Origin: Octopus vulgaris
Lineage: Eukaryota
Length of the DNA stretch: 64,000 bases
Direction: 5' to 3'
NCBI GenBank assembly: GCA_951406725.2
Contig: OX597839.1
Coordinates: 27,962,001-28,026,000, forward strand
Below, piece by piece: positions 3,452 through 57,024 of this stretch. The translations under genes and the position numbers were made by a program. The notes beneath the pieces are model-generated. The model did not search any database. It was not told the DNA's origin and worked only from the letters and a program-made list of their open reading frames with translations. The number at the start of each line of letters is the position of its first letter. Positions within the stretch are counted from its first letter, which is position 1.

Positions 3452-3826
3452 ATCATCATAATCATCATCATTTAGCATCCGCTTTCCATGCTAGCATGGG
3501 TTGGACAGTTCAACTGGGGTCTGTGAAGCCGGAAGGCTGCATCAGGCCCAGTCAGATCTGGCAGTGTTTCTATGGCTGGATGCCCTTCCTAACGCCAACC
3601 ACTCCGTGAGTGTAGTGGGTGCTTTTTACGTGCCACCCGCACAGGTGCCAGATGGAGCTGGCAAACGGCCACAAACGGATGGTGCTTTTATGTGCCACCG
3701 GCATGGGGGCCAGGCGAAGCTGGCAACGGACACGAGCGGATAGTGCTTTTACGTGCCACCGGCACGGGGACCAGGCGAGGCTGGCAGCGGACATGAACGG
3801 ATGGTGCTTTTACGTGCCACCGGCAC
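3452..3826 (-). mobile_element. RTE-clade LINE 3' end (family B)
   Basis: ggcgttaggaagggcatccagcc motif, (GAT)n tail, internal ~57-bp tandem units; the same tail follows RTE-like C-terminal coding sequence at 57270-57390. Confidence 0.8.
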
Positions 3827-5171: not shown

Positions 5172-5580
5172 AAAGTTTAAAATTAGAAAAAAACATCTTT
5201 AAAAGTTTCAATGTTGACAAATTAAAATGTTTCAATGTCGACACATTTAAAATGCTCAAAAGAGAAGGGGTAAGTTTGAATGTTAATAGCAGTCAATAAA
5301 ATTAAAAGTTTGTATCAATTTGTTTGAATGTATAAAGTTCATTAATTTTAGTGGTGGTCGACTAGTCATACTGAAAAGAACAAGTGTGGTATGAAAATAG
5401 TAAAAAAAAGGGAATTTGGTTTACAGTTTTTCTGATCCTCTTCTAATAGATGCTTTCGCTTGTAAGTTTCCGATGAACCAATCCCTGGTTCACTGTAGTT
5501 GTGATGATAAGAGTGACAAGGGAGTATCTGAAACTCAGTATAGGGCCATTATCTCAACCTACATCACTATTATTGTTTAA

Positions 5581-5790
5581 CCCTTTAGCATTCAGATTCT
5601 TCTGTCAAATGTAAAGCTTATGTATTCACACCATGTAAAATTAATCTTGCATCATTTCATGGCTTTGAGATTTCAGTGATGTGATTGTTTATTTTTAAAA
5701 TGACACAATAAGGTAGCTATGAATGACCATATCCGACTAGTTTGAGTATAAAATAGGGAGAATATTTTGGCCGGTTTAAACACTAAAGGG
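5581..5790. mobile_element. piggyBac-type MITE
   Basis: TTAA|ccctttag ... ctaaaggg|TTAA; second copy at 39546-39766. Confidence 0.85.
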
Positions 5791-5793
5791 TTA

Positions 5794-6000
5794 AGGCAAA
5801 GAGCTGGCAGAATCATTAGCACGCCGGGCAAAATGCTTTGCGGCATTTCGTCTGTCCTTACTAAGTTCAAATTCTGCCAAGGTCAGCTTTGCCTTTCATC
5901 CTTTCGAGGTTGATGAAAATAAATACTGGAGTCAATGTAGTCAACTTCACCCTTCCCCCAAAATTTCAGGCCTTGTGCCAATAGTTGAAAGGATTATTGT
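5794..6000 (+). mobile_element. SINE family C
   Basis: gagctggcagaatcattagcac..gttcaaattc..gcctttcatcctttcg..gataa-like domain. Confidence 0.8.
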
Positions 6001-10454: not shown

Positions 10455-10840
10455 TCATCATCATCGTTTAACATCCGTTTTCCATGCTAGCATGGGCTGG
10501 ATGGTTCAACCGGAGTCTGGGAAGCCAGGAGGCTGCACCAGTCTCCAGTCTGATCTGGCAGTGTTTGTACAGCTGGTTGCCCTTCCTAACGCCAACCACT
10601 CCATGAATGTAGTGGGTGCTTTTTACATGCCACCAGCACAGGTGCCAGGTGAGGCTGGCAACAGCCATGATTGGTTGGTGCTTTTTATGTGCCACCAGCA
10701 CAGAAGTCAGTCAAGGCGGTGCTGGCATCGGCCACGTTTGGATGGTGCTTTTTATGTGCCACCGGCACAGGTATCACAGCTACAATTTCTATTTGATTTT
10801 TTGATGTTGATGTACTTGACTTAATAGGTCTCCTCAAGCA
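10455..10840 (-). mobile_element. RTE-clade LINE 3' end (family B)
   Basis: Same tail and tandem units as 3452-3826. Confidence 0.8.
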
Positions 10841-10870: not shown

Positions 10871-12131
10871 CAAGGGGCTACCCAAAAGAAGCCGTAATTT
10901 TGCAATATTATTTTATTCACTTAGTTTTACATGTTTACTCTTTTACAACCTTCAAAATATTCTCCGTTTGAAGCAAGGCATCAGTCCAGACACGTTTTTC
11001 CACTATTCAAAGCAGAGCTGGAACTCTTGCGAAGGGATGCCTTTTAACGCCTCCATCGTTGTTCTTCTTCCTCTTTCTTCCACATCTGCAAATTCCGTAG
11101 CACCAGCCTTCGTCACCAGTGATGACCTTCAAAAATAGGTCCGGATCAACTTCCAGCTGGTTTTTTTCAATTCACGTAAAAAGCACCGTCCGTTCGTGTC
11201 CGTTGCCAGCCTCGCCTGGCCCCCGTGCCGGTGGCACGTAAAAAGCACCATCCGTTTCGTGGCCGTTTGCCAGCCTCGCCTGGCCCCCGTGCCGGTGGCA
11301 CGTAGCACCATCCATTCGTGTCCGTTGCCAGCCTCGCATGGCCCCCGTGCCGGTGGCACGTAAAAGCACCCACTACACTCACGGAGTGGTTGGCGTTAGG
11401 AAGGGCATCCAGCCGTAGAAACACTGCCAGATCTGACTGGGCCTGATGAAGCCTTCTGGCTTCACAGACCCCAGTTGAACCGACCAACCCATGCTAGCAT
11501 GGAAAGCGGACACTAAACGATGATGATGATGATGATGATGACACGTATTCAGTCTTGACTGCTTTTAATCTTCCGTGAGCAAGCGAGGCACAAATTTTGC
11601 TGCAACTGTTTTCATTTGCAATTCCTCGCTGAAAATTCGTTGGCAGAAGTTCCAGGACACACCCGTCATATCAACAAGTTTGTCAATTGTTCAGTGACAG
11701 CCCTCCAAGATCAGTTCATGAATTTTCATGATGTTTTCATTTCTTCAGGAGATCAACGGTCATCCTGAACAAGGCTGATCTTCAAGTAACAAGTAACCAT
11801 TCCTAAAGCATGGAAACCACTCGTTTCCATGCTTTAGGCATGGCAGTGTCCTTGTAAGCTGTTTGAAGCATGACAACTGTTTCAGCTGCCGTTTTCCCCA
11901 CCAGAAAACAGGATCTTCCTTCATTTTAGCTCGTGCAAAAATCGACAAACGGGGAAGAAAGAACTGCAGAACAAGGACACACACGACGTGGCAGTATGAC
12001 TCTGGTGAGCGCCACCGGTCAGCAGACTGATGCCTGAAGGTTGCATCAAGTGGCTTCAAACGGTGGAAGCCTGAACTACAACAGGTTTATGTCACAGAAA
12101 ATGTTTTCAATTACTTTTGGGTACCCACTTG
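10871..12131 (-). mobile_element. Internally deleted mariner element with both TIRs
   Basis: TA|caaggggctacccaaaag ... cttttgggtacccacttg|TA; minus-strand relics ..EELQMKTVAAKFVPRLL.. and ..EFQLCFE*WKKR..NGEYFEG. Confidence 0.8.
11171..11540 (+). mobile_element. RTE 3' end (family B) nested in the mariner element
   Basis: Tandem gtgccggtggcacgtaaaa units, (GAT)n tail. Confidence 0.85.
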
Positions 12132-14172: not shown

Positions 14173-14806
14173 TCAGGTCATCCCATAAGTTCTGTCTGAA
14201 TTTTGAATAAAGAAAACAAAGTGATCAAATGTTATATTTAATTGAAATTTAATCATCAATGTACTTTCCCTGATTATCTATGACTTCCTTCCATCTATTT
14301 ACAAGCTTTTTAATCCCATCAATGTAAAACTCTTTTGGTTTCAAAACAAAGAACTCTGAAATGTCAGTTTCGACCTCCTCCTGGCTTGCAAAAGTTATGT
14401 CCCCCAAATGATTCTGTAAACTACGAAACAAATGGTAGTCTGAAGGAGCAAGGTTGGGAGAATAAGGTGGATGAGGAATTTTTCCCAAACAAGCTCTTCG
14501 ATCTTCTGTGATGTGATCTTTGCAGTGTGGGGTTGCACATTGTCCTGATGAAACATCACTCCTTTTCGATTCACTAAAGCAGGTCTTCTTCTCTTCAAAG
14601 CTTGGTTCAAATGCTCTAATTGCAGACAGCAGACTTGAGCATTGATTGTTGCTAATTAGGTGGTAACAATTCAAAGTGAATTACTCCTTTGCAATCCCAC
14701 CAAACTGAGAGAAGAGCCTTTTTCCCATGAAGTTCCCTTCTCTATTGTGGTTGAGCTTTTTCCCAAGCCAAGGAAATGAGGCCCAATTATCTCATCCACA
14801 GTAATT
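14173..14806 (-). pseudogene. mariner (DD34D-type) transposase C-terminal half with one terminus, frameshifted
   Basis: ORFs 14249-14674 and 14395-14610: FHQDNVQPH and PHPPYSPNLAPSDYHLFRSLQNHL..RWKEVIDNQGKYID; ITVDE-like first catalytic motif near 14790. Confidence 0.92.
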
Positions 14807-15278
14807 GCACACCATACTGTACACTATATGGGCTGCACTTCTCTTTGGTGTGTTGCTCTCAGATTCTCAGATCTTACAAACCATCTTACAAACAATAACT
14901 CTGAGCACCTTTTCAAACTCCACCCGTCTAACACCCGTGGACATGTTTACAAAGTCAGAAAACAGCACAGCTCCCATGACTTTCGGAAACATTTTTTCAC
15001 GCTGAGAGTTGCTGAAGCATGGAACAAACTGCCATCATCAGTTGTTAGTTGTCGGAGCACTGCATCCTTCAAAACTTCCATGCTTCCTGAGATTCGCCAA
15101 CACTACACTTGATTTTCTCCCCTCCATACACACACAGCATGTATCTGACTCATACACTGTTCACTTTCCAGACATTTTTACATTACTGCATGTGCTTTAT
15201 ATGCACTTTTGACAAGTTGTGGTGCACCTGAGCACTGTATACAATAATTCCATTATTATTATTATTATTATTATTATA
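14807..15278 (+). mobile_element. CR1/Jockey-group LINE 3' end
   Basis: ORF 14828-15112 TRGHVYKVRKQHSSHDFRKHFFTLRVAEAWNKLP is a typical CR1-group ORF2 C-terminus; (ATT)n tail. Confidence 0.88.
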
Positions 15279-18541: not shown

Positions 18542-18587
<46 letters not shown>

Positions 18588-18724
18588 GTGTGGCACTTTG
18601 GGTAGGTGTCTTCTACTATAGCCCCGAGCCGACCGGAGCTTTGTGATTGAATTCCGGTAGGTAAGTTACTGCCGTGTGTGTATGTGTGCGTATAGCTACT
18701 CAGTGCCTCTCCGAAAGAGAGAGA

Positions 18725-18768
<44 letters not shown>

Positions 18769-18905
18769 GTGTGGCACTTTGGGTAGGTGTCTTCTACTAT
18801 AGCCCCGAGCCGACCGGAGCTTTGTGATTGAATTCGGTAGGTGGAAGTTACTGCCGTGTGTGTATGTGTGCGTATAGCTACTCAGTGCCTCTCCGAAAGA
18901 GAGAG

Positions 18906-18945
<40 letters not shown>

Positions 18946-25512: not shown

Positions 25513-26040
25513 CCCGTGGCCTTCTATACAGGATGTAGCCAGTCCACTTATGCATACCTTTCTTTCTTGGGACACAAAACTCTATTTGTGAAGACCTGTT
25601 GAGGCAAGTGAGAATCAGAATCGAAATCGATCAATGGAAATTGCAGCTGAGATACCAGTGCCGGTGGCACGTAAGAGAACCATCCGAACATGGCCATTGC
25701 CAGCGCCGCCCCAACTGGCCTCGTGCCGGTGGCACGTAAAAAGCACCACCCGTTCATGGCCGTTGCCAGCCTCACCTGGCCCCCGTGCCGGTGGCACATA
25801 ATAAGCACCATCCGATCGTGGCCATTTGCCAGACTCGACTGGCACCTGTGCCGGTGGCACGTAAAAAGCACCCACTACTCTCATGGAGTGGTTGGCGTTA
25901 GGAAGGGCATCCAGCCGTAGAAACATTGCCAGATCAGACTGGGCCTGGTGCAGCCTTCTGGCTTCCCAGACCCCAGTTGAACCATCCAACCCATGCCAGC
26001 ATGGAAAGCGGACACTAAACGATGATGATGATGATGATGA

Positions 26041-26087: not shown

Positions 26088-26515
26088 ATGGGTGCAGGCA
26101 TGGCTGCGTGGTGAGAAGCTTGCTTCCCAACCACATTGTTCTGGGTTCAGTCCCACAGCGTGGCACCTTGGACAAGTGTCTTCTACTATAGCCTCGGGCT
26201 TACCAAAGCCTTGTAAGTGGATTTGGTAGATGGAAACTGAAAGAAGCCCATTGTATATATATATATATATATAATAGGTGAGTGTGTGCTAAGAAGCTTA
26301 CTTCCCAGATTCTTCATTATTTTTAACAGAAACATAAAAAACAAAAGACTTTAATATGGTCCAAATTAAATCCTTCCCTCAAAATGTCAAATTAATTTTT
26401 GTCTCAAACACCAAGTTAACAATGATAAAGTTATTTTATTAAATTCTTCATTATTTCCAAAATTTATTGAAACAAAACTACATTTTCAATAGGAATATGG
26501 TAACAATAGTGTTAA

Positions 26516-26773
26516 CCCTTTTGATACTAACCTGGCCAAAACTGGCTCTGGCTCTGTAGTATAAATGTCTTGTTTTCATAAGTTTTTCATTAAAATCTTC
26601 CACCAAACCTTAGTCACAATTTATGATCCTAACAGTAGCTTAATGATAACTAAGTTATTTTACTAAATTCTTTGTTATATATTTTACTAAATTCTTTGTT
26701 ATACTAAATTCTTTGTTATAAAGTAATCGAAAGAAACACAGAGAATCTCAACAGGAATACAGAAATAGAAGGG
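26516..26773. mobile_element. piggyBac-type MITE, second family
   Basis: TTAA|cccttttgatac ... gaaggg|TTAA; near-identical copy at 56383-56604. Confidence 0.82.
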
Positions 26774-27049
26774 TTAAAGTGATCTGATTTAACTTCTTTC
26801 ATCAAAATTCCGTTTAGATTTACGTTCAAAACATCAGCTTAACAATAGCAAAGTTATTTTACTAAGTTCTTTTTTTGTCCCCAAACTGATTGAAGCAAAA
26901 ATAATGTGTTCCAATAGAAATATGGTGACAAAGGCGTTAACCGTTTTGGTCCCACTACATGAGATTGCACCGGGTTTTATGAGACAAACTTCCTGTTTTG
27001 AAGCATTCTAAAATAAATCTTTTTCATTAAGATTTCATGTTCAGTTTAT

Positions 27050-27175: not shown

Positions 27176-27179
27176 GTTT

Positions 27180-27523
27180 CATTCTTTTATTTGTTTCAGT
27201 CATTTGACTGCGACCATGCTGGGGCACCACTTTTAGTCAAACAAATCGACCCCAGGACTTATTCTTTTATAAGCCTAGTACTTATTCTATCGGTCTCTTT
27301 TGCCGAACTGCTAAGTTAAACACACCAACATCAGTTGTCAAGCAATGGTAGAAGGACAAGCACAGACATGCAAACATAAACATATATACATACGACAGGC
27401 TTCTTTCAGTTTCCATCTACCAAATCCACTCACAAGGCTTGCCCCCAAGGTGCCACACAATGGGACTGAACCTGGAACCATGTGGTTGGTAAGCAAGCTA
27501 CTTGCCACACAGCCACAACGGCA

Positions 27524-27526
<3 letters not shown>
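27180..27526 (-). mobile_element. SINE family A
   Basis: Reverse-complement match with internal deletions. Confidence 0.85.
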
Positions 27527-27564
<38 letters not shown>

Positions 27565-28184
27565 ATAACCCATGTAGCATGGAAAGCGGACGTTAAACGA
27601 TGACGATGATATATATATATATATATACGTTTTACATATGCAGTGCATGTGTGTATATATGTGTGTGAGCATACATACACACATAGATTCCTACTCAGAC
27701 ACACGTACACACACAAGACTACCCTGTGTGACGCTGTCTAAATTCCAATGAAAGAGTTTTGTTTCCAAACTAGAACCCAGTTCTTTCTCCATTGGTGAGA
27801 ATTTTCAAATATGAAACACAAGAAAATGTACATGTGTATGTTTGTATGTGTGTACATGTGTGTGTGTGTGTGTGTACATGCTATGGTGTCCAATACAACA
27901 CCAGCAGCTGCAAGGTTCTTGAGTGAATTATGTTCTCAACAAACCAACCATATATATGTGTGTGTGTATATGTATATATGTATATATATATATATGTGTG
28001 TGCATATATATATACATATAGATACATGCAACTTTGCGTGTGTGTATGTGTATATATATACATGCATATATACATATATGTGTGTATATACATACATATA
28101 TATATATATGTGTGTGTGTATATATATATATGTACATTTATATATATATATATATATATGTTTATACATACTCTACATATACTC

Positions 28185-28231
<47 letters not shown>

Positions 28232-28751
28232 CATACATAAACACATAGACACATATATATATATACATACATATACATTCATATATAGATATATACACAC
28301 GTGTGTATGTGTGTATATATATGTATATATACACGTAGTTTTGCTTGTCTGTCCAGACAACTGCTGTGTGTAGAATGTACGTGCACAACATGCGTAGCTG
28401 AGTGTAATTGTACCTAAATGTTTCCTCGGGGTCTCCAGTGTGAAAACACGACCCAGCCATCTGTCTTGCTTCTACACACTGTAGTTTGTGTATATAACTG
28501 AACATCTTGTTTTCCACTTAAATCCACCCCTCCACCCCTCCCCACCTTCTCCATCCACCCTTTATGCACACCCACACACCCTGATCACGGTGTCACATGG
28601 TGATGAACTTGTTCCTAATCAAACACAATATTATTACAATCTAGGCGAGCATGGTTTCAGACAATGTGTGTGTGTGTGCATATATGTATATGTATGTATG
28701 CATATATATATGTGTGTGTGTATACATATATATATATATATTATGTATATA

Positions 28752-29166
28752 CTCTTTTACTCTTTTAGTTGTTTCAGTCATTTGACTGCAGCCATGCTGG
28801 AGCACCGCCTTTAGTCGAGCAAATCGACCCCGGGACTTATTCTTTGTAAGCCCAGTACTTATTCTATCGGTCTCTTTTGCCGAACCGCTAAGTGATGGGG
28901 ACGTAAACACACCAGCATCGGTTGTCAAGCAATGCTAGGGGGACAAACACACACACACAAACATATACACACACATACATACATATATATATACATATAT
29001 ACGACAGGCTTCTTTCAGTTTCCGTCTACCAAATCCACTCACAAGGCTTTGGTCGGCCCGAGGCTATAGCAGAAGACACTTGCCCAAGATGCCACGCAGT
29101 GGGACTGAACCCAGAACCATGTGTGTGGTAGGCAAGCTACTTACCACACAGCCACTCCTGCGCCTA
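28752..29166 (-). mobile_element. SINE family A, full length
   Basis: Reverse-complement match to family A. Confidence 0.92.
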
Positions 29167-29468
29167 TGTATAAATGTTTATAATATATATACACATATAC
29201 AAAAAATACATACATACATAAATATATATATATAGAGAGAGAGAGAGAGAAATATTAATATTTCTAATTCTCTCTAAAGGAGACTTCGGCAGCGGTACTG
29301 GATATTAATAGTTATCACCAAGCTAACATGGCAGTCCAGAAAAATAGGATGAATGTTGCCACTGATTAGCTCCAAGAGGCCATCGCCTCTAGTTAGCTAT
29401 GTGACACACGAACCTGTGTCCATTATAATCTTCGAACAGGGGAGGTCAGCCGCTTCCCCTTGCTTGTA

Positions 29469-29511
29469 TTTACAGACTAGTTTCGGGGTATTTGACTCTC
29501 ATCAATGTAGA
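29469..29511 (-). ncRNA. Minimal hammerhead motif in the foldback loop
   Basis: Minus strand: tctaca-TTGATGA-gagtcaaatacccc-GAAA-ctag-TC-tgtaaa. Confidence 0.62.
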
Positions 29512-29834
29512 GCAGCCAAACCCAGACCAGCAAGGCGAAGCGGCTGACCTCCCCTGTTCGAAGGTTTTAATGGACACAGGTTCGTGTGTCACATAGCTAG
29601 TTAGAGGCGATGGCCTCTTGGAGCTAATCAACAGCAGCTTTAGTCTTATATTTATGGACTGCCATATTAGTCTGGCAATAACTATTAATATCCAGTACCG
29701 CTGCCGTAGTCTCCTTTAGAGAGACTTAGGAATATTAATATTTATAGTTTTGAAAACCAATGGATGTATTCCACTGAATTTTAAATAATGCTTTGAACAG
29801 ATGGTCAGTCGCGACACCTGCTGGGTTCGGCTGC

Positions 29835-29877
29835 TCTACATTGATGAGAGGCAAATACCCCGAAACTAGTCTGTAGA
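29835..29877 (+). ncRNA. Minimal hammerhead motif
   Basis: tctaca-TTGATGA-gaggcaaatacccc-GAAA-ctag-TC-tgtaga; perfect 6-bp stem I, palindromic stem III actagt, GUC cleavage triplet. Confidence 0.7.
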
Positions 29878-30472
29878 TACCAGACCAGCAAGGGGAAGCG
29901 TTTGACCTCCCCTGTTCGAAGGTTATAATGGACACAGGTTCGTGTGTCACATAGCTAGCTAAAGGCGATGGCCTCTTGGAGCTAATCAACGGCAGCTTTT
30001 GTCCTATATTTATGGACTGCCATATTAGTTTGGCGATAACTTCTCAGACCTACCCTACAATGTCATTCTAAAAATAATTACATTATTGAAATCTCAAAGC
30101 CATGAGATAATACGTGATTAATTCAAGGCAATGTGAAGAAATAAGCATTTCATTTGATAGTAATCTGAATTTTCATTTTCCTTTGGCAGTAATCTCATGT
30201 TGAGCAAAATGTTTGGCAGCATTTCATCCATATTTATTGTTCTGAGTTCAAACTCCACCTGGGCCGACTTTGCCTTTCATCCCCTCAGAATCGATAAAAT
30301 AAGTACTAGTTGAAGACTGGGGTCAACCTAATTGACTAGCTCTCTCTATCAAAAGTGCTGGCCTTGTGCCAAAATTTGAAACCATCATCTCTCTCTCCTT
30401 TTCTCTTTCCATCTCTTTTCCGCTTTCTTTCTCTCCCCCTTTCCACCAATATTCAATATCCAATGTTGATAC

Positions 30473-30697
30473 AGGCGGCAAACTGGCAGAATCGTTAGCA
30501 TGCCGGGCAAAATGCTTAGTGGCATTTCATCTGCCGTTACATTCTGAGTTCAAATTCTGCCATGGTCAACTCTGCCTTTCATCCTTTTGGGGTCGATTAA
30601 ATAAGTACCAGTTATGCACTGAGGTCGATGCAATCGACTTGATCCCTTTTTTGTCCCCTCTATGTTTATCCCCCTGTTGGCAGTTAAGAAATAAATA
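30473..30697 (+). mobile_element. SINE family C
   Basis: Matches 15845 copy; an older copy lies at ~30200-30385. Confidence 0.82.
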
Positions 30698-31159
30698 TGT
30701 TGCTACAGGTTTACTGGATCTTCAAATTAAATATTTTACATTTATGTATTTGTGATATAGAAAATATGAAGAGTTTTCATCAGGATGACTCAAACTAATA
30801 GGTATGCATTCTGAGTGCTCAAATAAGTGTGCCACCAAATTTCCAATTAGAACAGCAGTTGATGTTGTGGTTGTGTGATTATCTTGTTCAAAAACGGCTG
30901 ATGGTGGCATCCCTTTGAGTCAATGGACATTGGTTAAAGTAATGAGGAAAAGCAAACAGTTAGGCAATGCAGGACAAGGAGATTTGATTTCATTGAATTC
31001 AATCTAAAATTTACCTACGTAATGAAAGGTAAACATAGTACCAACTGGTAAAGATAGTCTCTGACAGCTGTTTCTGGGATGTCCCAGCTATTGGAGCATC
31101 GTATCAAGCAAAGGCTCTGTAAGTCAGGTGTTCCATCGTCAGAGAAATATAGATTAGGC

Positions 31160-31470
31160 CAAGGCTGGATTAAGACCCATAGAGGCCCCAAGCACTTGAA
31201 AGGTTTTGGTGCCCTCAAGTATATGTAAATGGTTCAAAATGTAAACAAAAATAAACCATAAAATACATTTTTATTTTTCAAATGAAACCAAATTTATAGA
31301 AAGATGGAAAATAACGTTTGTTTTTGTATTCTTCTATTTTATTTAGATTTGAAAAGATTTCTCCTTCGTTTTTCTTTTCTTTTTTTGCATAGTGTTCGAT
31401 GATATCATTAAAATTAATTTTATGTAAAACTTCTGCTTCTATACTTAGTAGAGATAAGGCATTACAAATA
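31160..31470 (-). mobile_element. hAT transposon 3' end relic
   Basis: ORF 31278-31517 NALSLLSIEAEVLHKINFNDIIEHYAKK resembles the hAT C-terminal dimerisation region; terminus caaggctggattaag. Confidence 0.7.
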
Positions 31471-31842
31471 ATCTTTTCTACTCTAGGCGTGAAATTTCTG
31501 GGAAGGGTACCAGTCAATTAGACCGACCCCAGTATGCAACTAGTACTTAATTTATCAACCTCCGGAAAGATGAAAAGCAAAGTTGACCTCGGTGGAATTT
31601 GAACTCAGAATGTAAAGACAGTTGAAATACCACCAAGTATTTCACTTGGCATGGTAACATTTCTGCCAGCTTAAGGCATTATAAATATTATTTTAGCAAG
31701 TTTAAAGTGATTTCTTTTGTGCTGTAAACCATTTACCATTTCTGTGGTGCCCCTGTCCCTTGATGCTCTGAATGCGTGCTTATTTTGCTTAATGGTTAAT
31801 TCAGCACTGGGTTTGACAGTGGAAAGACTGTTCCTCAACAAT

Positions 31843-32268
31843 GTATTTGTTTTGCAAGATTCTTGATGTGAAATTGTGTATTGAAACAAATATTGTTGTA
31901 TTCGGGGATGGTCGTCTTTTGTCAATTAAACACATGCATTATTTATTTGACCTTCACTTCAGCTTTACAATTATTAGCAGTTGTTATTGTTTATTTGTCA
32001 GAGTTCTTTTGTCACATATTCTGTGACCCCCCCTTCAATGACTGCCTATTCTCCATGTCTCCACTTCTTTCTGATCTTGTCCTGTGAAATAGACAGGACC
32101 AGACCAGAGAGGAGAGGAGACACAAAAACAAAAAAAAACAAAAAAAACAGATAATCACTGAAGAGATCTCAATATGTGATGAAAGAACTTTGCTGATGAA
32201 GTGAAGATCAAATAAACAGTGTGTGTGCGTTCATTGGCAAAATGACCATCCCCAAATATAACGATATC
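31843..32268. mobile_element. Foldback or MITE-like element family G
   Basis: Long imperfect inverted arms (atattgttgtattcggggatggtc / gaccatccccaaatataacgatat) centred near 32088; relatives at 35070 and 37390. Confidence 0.65.
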
Positions 32269-39500: not shown

Positions 39501-39545
39501 TCCACATCATCCTAACCCTAACCTCCCCTCAAAATTAAGATTTAA

Positions 39546-39766
39546 CCCTTTAGTGTTCAGATTACTCTGTTAAATGTAATACTTTTTCACTCAAATTGTT
39601 TTGAATTAATCATGCATTATCTTATAGCTTTGAGGTTTCAATGATGTGATTGTTTATTTTCAGAATGGCATTGTAGGTTAGGAGTGAGAGGCCAGATATC
39701 ACCAGTTTGAATATAAAACATGTAGAATATATTGGGCTGGATTTGGTCGGTTTAAACACTAAAGGG
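39546..39766. mobile_element. piggyBac-type MITE
   Basis: TTAA|ccctttagtgtt ... aacactaaaggg|TTAA, 12-bp perfect TIR. Confidence 0.88.
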
Positions 39767-40029
39767 TTAACCATTCCCTTCCCTTAATCGACTTAATCCC
39801 TTTCCCCAATTCTCAGGTTTTGTGCTTCCAGTAAAAAGGAAAAATTAAGTACCAGTTGCATACTGGGGTCGATGTAATTGACTATCCCCCTCCCACAAAT
39901 TACAGGCCTTGTGCCTATAGTAGAAAAGTTTGTTGTTGTTGTTGTTGTTGTTATTCCAAGATGTCCTGATAGCATTGGAAGCTGGTCCTAGTGGAGCCAG
40001 GAGGAATGCAAAACAGTTTGGATATTTGG

Positions 40030-44875: not shown

Positions 44876-45432
44876 TACCAGGGTCTCCAGAGAAATTTGG
44901 CCCAGTGAAACCAGACTGCTTTTGAACCCAAAGGAGATGGTGGTGGGGAAGGGGTCCTCGTGATTCAAGATGGATTATGAGGTTTTTATTTTCATAGACA
45001 AGAGCCCAGCAGATAATCAAGGGTCGCTACCAGGGTCTCCCAAGAGAAATTTGGCTCAGTGAAACTGGACTAATTTTGAACCCATGGAGATTAGGTGGTG
45101 GGGCCTCTCCTGATTCAAGATGGATTATGAGGTTTTTATTTTCATAGACAGGAGCCCAGCAAATAATCAAGAGTCACTACCGGGGTCTCCCAAGAGAAAT
45201 TTGGCTCAGTGAAACTGGACTACTTTTGAACCCATGGAGATTAGGTGGTGGGGCCTCTCCTGATCCAAGGTAGATTATGAGGTTTTTATTTTCATAGACA
45301 GGAGCCCAGCAAATAATCAAGGGTCACTACCAGGGTCTCCCAAGAGAAATTTGGCTCAGTGAAACTGGACTGGGGTGGCCTCTCCTGTTTCATTTTCATA
45401 GACATGGGTCCAGCAGATAATCAAGGGTTCCT
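44876..45432. repeat. 150-bp tandem satellite, about 3.7 units
   Basis: tacc(a/g)gggtctcc starts at 44876, 45028, 45178 and 45328. Confidence 0.92.
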
Positions 45433-56007: not shown

Positions 56008-56382
56008 TGTATATATAAAACCTGCCCAAACCAGGACAAGAAATGTGAGCTCTTGCAAATAGGTTTATGCATAGCCTTGCATGTTAAGTAACTAACTTTG
56101 CAGAAGAAATTTATGGGAATTAAATTTGTTTTTAATAAAGCTTTGTTGTGAAGGCATCCTGTCGGTCTTTGGTTTGAAAACGATGCAGGAATTGATAAGA
56201 ACATCTCAGACAGATTGTAATGAAAGACAATTATAGAAATACTGGAATGAAATGCTACAAATGTGTGTATCTCTGTGTATGTGTGCATTTGTGTGTATGT
56301 ATATGTGTATGTGTGTATGTATATGTGTGTTTTTCTGTGTATGTGTGTCTGTGTGTGCACATCACACATTTTACCATCTTAA

Positions 56383-56604
56383 CCCTTTTGATACCAACCC
56401 GCATGAAACCGCCTCTGGCTCTGTAGTACAAATGTCTTCTTTTCATAAGTTCTGAATTAAAATCTTCCACCAAACCTTAGTCACAATTTATGTTCCTAAA
56501 ACTAGCTGAATGATAACCAAGTTATTTTACTAAATTCTTTGTTAAATTTAAAATGAATTGAAAGAAACACAGAGCATCTCAACAGAAATACAGTAATGAA
56601 AGGG
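56383..56604. mobile_element. piggyBac-type MITE, second family
   Basis: TTAA|cccttt ... aaaggg|TTAA; homologous to 26516-26773. Confidence 0.85.
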
Positions 56605-57024
56605 TTAATAAAGAAGGACACTTTTGACAATGTTGTCCTAGCTCTACCCTTTTTCCTGAAAGGACAGGATGGTCATGGTTGGAATGCCTCTGGCCATAGG
56701 TATGCTCAATCAGAGCTGGCTAAATAACAACAACAATCAAGTGAAGTCTGGTATGTAGGGGGAAGTTACATTGCACATCATCGCCATCATCCTCATCATC
56801 ATCATCATCATCATCACCACATTATGCTTAAAAGTTATAATTAATGTTATTGCATAAGTGTGGCTGTGTGGTATGAAGTTTGCTTCCCCACCACATGGTT
56901 CCGAGTTCAGTCCCACTGCATGGTACCTTGGGCAAGTGTCTTCTACTATAGCCTCAGACGTGACCAAAGCTTTGTGGCTGGATTAGTAGATGGAAACTGA
57001 AATAAGCCCGCCACATACATATAT

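Follow-up and report, generated by a model that had tools for sequence, protein, structure and literature searches.

Animal non-LTR retrozymes are described as non-coding units of 150-450 nt (PMC7229834; preprint 10.64898/2026.07.22.740005), those of mussels measuring 350-390 bp (PMC7229834), and a copy is counted as 'active' when two hammerhead units follow each other (preprint 10.64898/2026.07.22.740005). According to PMC4209133, the canonical metazoan type I hammerhead needs a second copy of the motif to form a stable stem III. The helper that mobilises animal retrozymes is presented in these sources as a proposal only (PMC7229834; preprint 10.64898/2026.07.22.740005).

Penelope-like elements (PLEs) are the other system to which the locus described here can be compared. 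Their copies end at two internal start sites of the reverse transcriptase (RT), which bound an optional tail of 30-40 nt, and the PLE protein, a predicted dimer, acts on AT-rich DNA, where it cuts both strands and extends them (PMC11167929). PLE insertions typically have an inverted, 5'-truncated copy at their side (PMC8557442, PMC3846280); the origin of these inverted and tandem ends has been termed undefined (PMC8557442), and self-priming on an antisense template has already been proposed for head-to-head junctions (PMC3846280). PLE-associated minimal hammerheads have a long stem II and a short stem I, and the earliest description of cores with a U3-A8 pair concerned PLE-linked motifs in Schistosoma (PMC4209133). 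This pair is a natural covariant for which activity in vitro was reported (PMC3088659). The Schistosoma hammerhead described in PMC2632901 carries the loop 2 CAAAUA and uses a 5' U together with an extrahelical pyrimidine of internal loop 1. A literature search through titles and abstract openings, with the supplement of PMC7229834 and one file of PMC4209133 lying outside it, found no report of a cephalopod hammerhead or retrozyme, nor any relevant work on PLEs that deals with fold-back or twin priming; the main text of the O. vulgaris repeat paper contains 0 occurrences of hammerhead or ribozyme.

Here, we describe a locus found in a stretch of 64,000 nt of Octopus vulgaris DNA (contig OX597839.1, positions 27,962,001 to 28,026,000), hereafter designated as the window. 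With a probability of about 75%, we read this locus as a non-coding, ~360-nt non-LTR retrozyme that uses the RT and endonuclease of a PLE.

Organization of the locus and its surroundings

Two inverted arms (29250-29467 and 29526-29743) of 218 nt, 89% complementary and 58 nt apart, frame the left part of the locus (Table 1). The foldback reported in the initial annotation, with arms of ~215 bp and a 64-nt loop, is therefore real, and its dimensions have been remeasured. The 358-nt period proposed at the same time is borne out by a direct repeat of 162 nt (29522-29683 and 29880-30041), with 93% identity and exactly this spacing. Two hammerheads on opposite strands had also been claimed, and a type I hammerhead scan run independently over both strands of the 64-kb window returned exactly these two, the minus-strand match spanning 29471-29509 before the outer stem I positions are counted. 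The reverse complement of 29821-30041 corresponds to the left arm with its loop (29310-29525), with 88.7% identity over 221 columns. In order, the locus comprises a leftward inverted copy (29525 to 29250), a 4-nt overlap, and a rightward direct run of 520 nt on the plus strand, equivalent to 1.45 units with a single hammerhead; the 3' ends of the inverted copy and of the direct run both point outward. No further copy of the ~360-nt unit occurs elsewhere in the 64-kb window. Because it has just one sense-strand hammerhead, the copy at the locus is unable to release a monomer on its own. The locus probably represents a single old insertion, the local copy being an inactive relic with no evident host function.

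Table 1. Features of the locus, with positions counted from the first nucleotide of the window
Feature	Position	Strand	Basis or remark
Left flank: (TA)n(GA)n microsatellite after SINE-like repeat	29218..29249		AT-rich target
Left arm L and loop, inverted 5'-truncated copy	29250..29525	-	starts at the equivalent of 29821, crosses the hammerhead, stops at the equivalent of 29743
Apparent mosaic of two sequence variants in left arm L	switch near the equivalent of 29630	-	family alleles
Decayed type I hammerhead	29469..29511	-	U3·G8 core, stems I and II mismatched; predicted cut 29475/29474
Head-to-head inversion junction	29522..29525		microhomology CCAG, 4 nt; equivalents of 29821-29824 meet 29880-29883
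Complete circularly permuted monomer, 358 nt, non-coding	29522..29879	+	repeat period, contigs, folding
Stretch bounded by two family 3' ends, read as optional PLE-type 'tail'	29691..29743	+	52 nt
Upstream arm of the interrupted 29-pair stem closing the hammerhead	29790..29824	+	folding
Type I hammerhead	29835..29877	+	motif scan, family letters
Downstream arm of the 29-pair stem	29885..29922	+	folding
Partial second unit R2	29880..30041	+	stops at the equivalent of 29683, 8 nt before the second family 3' end
Right flank: 128 nt from the interior of a TTAA-ended ~230-nt MITE-like repeat	30042..30169		without either MITE end

The window contains several other repeats. A MITE-like repeat of ~220-230 nt with TTAACCCTTTAG inverted ends occurs at 5576-5794 and 39541-39770, the full copies being 74% alike, and similar TTAACCC/GGGTTAA pairs delimit 26512-26777 and 56379-56608; the TTAA ends resemble those of piggyBac. 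An endless fragment of the MITE-like repeat abuts the retrozyme on its right. A deletion of target DNA from this repeat was considered and set aside, as the piece lacks both ends and its shortening is not attributable to the insertion. A SINE-like repeat with an internal microsatellite is found at 28755-29182 and 27177-27543, in pieces 83-94% alike, and many more copies are spread across the window. Dispersed repeats with an internal tandem of 58-67 nt, repeated 2.5-3.4 times, lie on both strands (3618-3826, 10615-10772, 11173-11370, and 25658-25872). Tandem arrays occupy 44876-45371 (150 nt x 3.3, 91%) and 18550-18943 (181 nt x 2.2, 97%), and the hammerhead scan found none inside them. Two ORFs, 14249-14680 on the minus strand and 14780-15112 on the plus strand, had no Pfam match; by eye, we take the former to resemble the C-terminus of a mariner transposase and the latter that of a LINE ORF2.

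An abundant non-coding family and its hammerhead

One period (29620-29977) was compared with the contigs of four of the 24 listed sequencing runs. Matching contigs numbered 2581 in X1 (organism A), 4092 in X2 (organism B), and 1013 in X7 (organism D); a further 130 came from X16 (organism B, RNA by guess only) and are silent on expression or circles. Small word shares in runs from organisms C and E were left out of account. No piece resembling the locus itself was present among the contigs listed. The part of the unit that is unique at the locus is bridged by other copies in X1 (29673-29920), X2 (29678-29863 and 29738-29977), and X7 (29662-29900), contigs from three organism labels span 29743-29821, and in all three runs contigs wrap from 29977 to 29620. 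The unit is thus closed all round, and the earlier proposal that 29523-29880 is one permuted monomer holds. Arrays with at least two complete hammerhead units did not appear; of the contigs listed none covers the entire 29620-29977 stretch, contigs of this kind being too short to reveal arrays, and those continuing into unlike sequence make up 0-1% in X1, X2, and X7. In pattern scans, the metagenome, viral, and prokaryotic genome contig sets each had 0 matches.

Summed contig depth, which is not equivalent to copy number and falls where the local copy diverges from the family, amounts to ~30k (X1), ~50k (X2), and ~1.8k (X7) over the spacer at 29752-29775, and to ~67-80k, 18-24k, and 3k, respectively, over the 5' half of the hammerhead. 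These values are of the same order, indicating that hammerhead copies largely continue into their own spacer and not into an ORF. A dip at 29776-29799 arises from loose ends (29781-29782) that match the unit past a small deletion in the local copy. The 3' ~200 nt of the unit account for most of the family depth, so that most copies appear to be shorter than one unit. Stops occur in all three sense frames 3' of the hammerhead and are common to copies. By eye, no RT or GIY-YIG ORF was recognised among the 120 frames of at least 100 aa in the window, and Pfam gave no match in 18 selected frames, a weak negative since two control frames, mariner- and LINE-like by eye, also went without a match. 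The unit is non-coding, and the ~360-nt sequence represents a very abundant, high-copy, closed family.

The family varies between organisms: the dominant subfamily of organism B differs from that of organisms A and D at 29650-29749 and 29882-29894. Together with the ends found at 29691 in organism B, this subfamily hints at lineage-specific bursts with different use of RT start sites. Single contigs carry internal deletions in which the hammerhead is lost (29779/29781 to 29889/29905, and 29831 to 29905); in two of these, the ends fall within or next to the two arms of the long stem, a pattern resembling a skip of the hairpin by the RT.

The plus-strand hammerhead has a stem I of six pairs (29835-29840 with 29872-29877), a core beginning at 29841, and a stem II of four positions (29848-29851 with 29858-29861) under the cap loop CAAAUA. 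GAAA (29862-29865) is followed by the palindrome ACUAGU (29865-29870), within which two pairs make up stem III, and the predicted cut falls after C29871. In both local hammerheads, U replaces C at core position 3 opposite G8, giving U3·G8, and stem II contains an A·C mismatch; the minus-strand motif has one additional mismatch in stem I and one in stem II. Since, moreover, folding did not return the motif as the minimum-energy structure in its sequence context, the local hammerheads are probably weak or dead. A pattern derived from the motif had two matches in the window vs 0.00 expected (100 shuffles), a comparison that is not independent, the pattern having been drawn from the motif itself. 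At its gathering score, Rfam gave 0 matches in the whole window and missed both hammerheads; at E<=10, a search of 29200-30100 returned no hammerhead family, only two irrelevant weak matches (E 2.5 and 7.2).

The family letters, whose frequencies describe organisms A, B, and D and not the window's own genome, draw a more regular ribozyme. Position 29846 is A in 99%, 98%, and 99% of the depth in X1, X2, and X7, which gives a U3-A8 core, and 29849 is G in 83-88%, which completes stem II. The stem I partners 29838 and 29874 are replaced by G and C, an A-U/G-C swap, in 36% and 35% of the depth in X2 and in 4.5% and 5.5% in X7; in X1 the two frequencies are unequal (2% vs 18%), and such tallies carry no phase of double changes. 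Counting against tidy conservation is U at 29861 in 47-64% of the depth, where G10.1-C11.1 becomes G·U. None of the 40 variant rows listed, out of 71, falls at 29841-29845, 29847, or 29862-29873. Far from being lost among copies, an outcome that would have contradicted the initial annotation, the hammerhead is retained in the family with changes of a compensatory type. Judged by its sequence, its geometry is that of the canonical metazoan type I, or retrozyme, hammerhead; with 6 bp in stem I and 4 bp in stem II, it departs from the PLE minimal form. By their placement, which is as in the Schistosoma ribozyme, U29878, C29834, and A29857 are candidate contact residues. A step in depth at the cut site (48k, 137k, and 218k in X1) was examined as a mark of cleaved RNA ends and discounted, three local differences confounding it.

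Folding of one 358-nt period gave a z of -5.3 for the linear form (0 of 100 shuffles) and -4.8 for the circular form (0 of 60 shuffles). In the fold, the hammerhead caps an interrupted stem of 29 pairs (Table 1), which the family letters mostly repair. Among those listed on stem pairs, four remove a mismatch or wobble and one pair changes from C-G to A-U in part of the depth; a single listed letter, at 29796 (2-45% of the depth), breaks a pair.

Seen against published descriptions, the family resembles animal non-LTR retrozymes in unit size, in a single canonical type I hammerhead per unit, in head-to-tail continuity, in a GC content below 50%, and in its self-paired fold; a short palindromic stem III is likewise reported for the axolotl retrozyme family. 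It differs from them by a U3-A8 instead of a C3-G8 core and by copies that appear mostly dispersed and below one unit, with PLE-type 3' ends and inverted heads. With the insertions of endonuclease-bearing PLEs, it shares the partial tandem with a head-to-head inverted, 5'-truncated copy (PMC3846280, PMC8557442, PMC11167929), as well as AT-rich or microsatellite targets, microhomology at the 5' junction, two 3' ends, and a target site duplication (TSD) that need not be present. In contrast to those elements, it has no RT/GIY-YIG ORF, its tail measures 52 nt vs 30-40 nt, and its hammerhead is canonical rather than minimal. Among the hammerheads reported for Schistosoma mansoni, the canonical type I motif matches the octopus one in loop 2 and in the candidate contacts of internal loop 1 (PMC2632901), and the minimal variant of the Cercyon PLE has the same U3-A8 core pair (PMC4209133); the octopus motif, unlike either, unites both features, and its stem III consists of two pairs and a palindromic loop.

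Ends, flanks, and class assignment

The main family 3' end corresponds to 29743, where loose ends were found in 25 (X1), 60 (X2), and 17 (X7) contigs and where depth drops 10- to 30-fold. Past this site, the contigs run on into long AT-rich stretches that do not resemble one another (agreement 0.49-0.56). Across the unit, none of the 24 loose-end rows listed, out of 556, continues into shared new sequence. A second 3' end lies 52 nt upstream, at 29691, in 27 contigs of X2 and three of X16, that is, among the listed rows, in runs of organism B only. At the locus, the first of these ends is exactly that of the left arm, and R2 stops close to the second (Table 1). Strand switches account for seven of the 15 joints listed (34 more joints exist) and occur at variable places; all seven have one side within 29873-29934, just downstream of the cut site, and three of them, given their lengths, would have to be head-to-head. 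The insertion ends of the locus show no TSD of at least 4 nt, the element has no poly(A) or simple-repeat tail of its own, and no tRNA gene occurs within 28000-32000. The end of R2 resembles one of two host copies, but too weakly for a priming homology to be claimed. In sequence terms, the two 3' ends, AT-rich flanks, inverted joints, and 5' truncation match the marks of PLE insertion.

The initial annotation had named the locus a retrozyme-like or Penelope pseudo-LTR (pLTR) unit, and the 'or' resolves toward a retrozyme bearing PLE insertion marks. On the retrozyme side stand the 358-nt non-coding unit, the conserved type I hammerhead, the head-to-tail continuity, and the stable self-paired monomer, the locus having one sense hammerhead in place of the two consecutive complete units of an 'active' copy. 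On the PLE side, the inverted 5'-truncated copy adjoining a partial tandem is a mark of Penelope-type insertion, and no ORF with RT and GIY-YIG, as expected between the pLTRs of an autonomous element, was recognised by eye in the window. It is unlikely, but conceivable, that an autonomous PLE simply left truncated pLTR ends here, with a short internal-deletion derivative or a local cDNA join accounting for the 358-nt period and no retrozyme cycle involved. The concentration of depth in the 3' ~200 nt would fit such ends, as would the tail, inversion, and AT-rich targets, which are PLE features (PMC11167929, PMC8557442, PMC3846280), and the U3-A8 pair first known from PLE-linked Schistosoma motifs (PMC4209133); yet the closure of the unit through 29743-29821 and its wrap-round under three organism labels speak against this reading. 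With 24 of 556 loose-end rows listed, a low-copy, ORF-bearing parent is conceivable. The listed rows have no shared continuation, 0-1% of contigs run into unlike sequence, the sense-frame stops are common to copies, and the 18 frames without a Pfam match add a weak negative. Nor does the hammerhead show the extended stem II and short stem I that mark minimal PLE motifs. Retrozymes are described as homologous to pLTRs (preprint 10.64898/2026.07.22.740005), and the two readings consequently grade into each other.

LINE insertions, too, are known to be 5'-truncated, to have AT-rich or microsatellite flanks, and to show microhomology at inversions. A hammerhead-bearing satellite or SINE-like repeat moved by a LINE, with the inversion produced by twin priming, recombination, or gene conversion, would hence share these three features, and conversion between repeats could likewise yield a mosaic left arm. 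We consider this improbable even though LINEs have been named as alternative helpers of retrozymes (PMC7229834): the 3' ends point outward, the unit is permuted, with two fixed 3' sites in its interior, and has neither a TSD nor a poly(A) or simple-repeat tail, and the minus-strand hammerhead, which sits in the loop outside the paired arms, nevertheless has rare letters in common with the plus-strand copy. A foldback or MITE-type DNA transposon, with the 218-nt arms as its inverted repeats and the hammerheads there by chance, is largely refuted and barely credible. The inverted arms are long and end in an identical AT-rich terminus, which might recall such an element in a window where MITE-like elements are common, but the right arm runs on into spacer, hammerhead, and second unit, inversion joints differ among copies, and family letters restore pairing in the hammerhead and the flanking stem. 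Fixed paired termini with a constant TSD, which the initial annotation had listed as evidence against its own proposal, are absent as well; the family has one fixed 3' end and unrelated flanks, and the locus no TSD.

Formation of the mirrored copy

For the retrozyme moved by a PLE, the history of the left arm can be approached through private changes. Those of L, R1, and R2 number 3/3/3 in the proximal 105 nt vs 11/5/1 in the distal 53 nt, a contrast with a Fisher p of 4e-4 that is optimistic, the breakpoint having been picked after inspection of the data. The distal letters of L (29650, 29654, 29666, 29671, and 29730) are the prevailing ones in X1 and X7, at 59-100%, whereas X2 has them at 2-47% and mostly carries the R letters at the distal sites; being common in X1 and X7, they are family variants and not the product of decay. 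R1 and R2 differ in a sister-like manner. In the hammerhead, conversely, L and R agree in letters seldom found in X1, X2, and X7, namely G29846 (1-2%), A29849 (12-17%), and A29879 (<4%). From these sequences, the left arm looks like a mosaic of two variants. The inversion junction lies 5 nt, or one CCAGA repeat, off the register of the long stem, and folding predicts that the 3' end of the cDNA strand pairs near this register. Among the seven strand-switch joints listed, two fall within 6-7 nt of the register and five outside the stem; several of the seven have no microhomology.

The following sequence of events would account for these features. Source arrays would be transcribed, and their U3-A8 hammerhead would cut after C29871, with the palindromic stem III probably bringing two copies together as a dimer; ligation of monomers into circles may follow. 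The PLE protein would nick AT-rich DNA and begin cDNA inside the RNA at either of two 3' sites. The right-hand cDNA would cover 1.45 units through an uncut hammerhead and end 8 nt before the next cut site, a course that only a circular or an uncleaved multimeric template would allow. The mirrored left arm would be formed in the same event: the end of the first cDNA would fold back, pairing at the complement of the stem that closes the hammerhead, copy itself through the ribozyme, and then join a second cDNA, of the other variant, primed from the other DNA end. A simple self fold-back alone was rejected, since the left arm extends 60 nt past R2 and the distal family alleles differ. A plain second cDNA would explain L without any fold-back if the octopus's own genome held a subfamily with the same mix of letters.

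Conditional on a PLE-moved retrozyme, fold-back followed by capture of a second cDNA is the most likely route for this one locus, which we put forward tentatively and at a little under even odds. To the self-priming already proposed for PLEs, the present analysis would add the use of cDNA and of the ribozyme stem. The complete picture, in which a PLE protein copies the circular RNA of a cephalopod-type retrozyme whose U3-A8 hammerhead escapes standard ribozyme searches, the ribozyme stem serves as self-priming cDNA hairpin, and a second cDNA completes the insertion, is speculative and rather doubtful as a whole.

That a U3-A8 core was missed by Rfam suggests that counts of retrozymes obtained with C3-G8 descriptors are too low. 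With an abundant family combining retrozyme anatomy and PLE end marks, the questions of the helper and of the inversion become addressable by genome analysis. If the proposed route is true, self-priming on the ribozyme stem would provide a mechanism, predictable from sequence, for the head-to-head inverted repeats of PLEs, and the locus would be direct footprint evidence for the mobilisation of retrozymes by PLEs.
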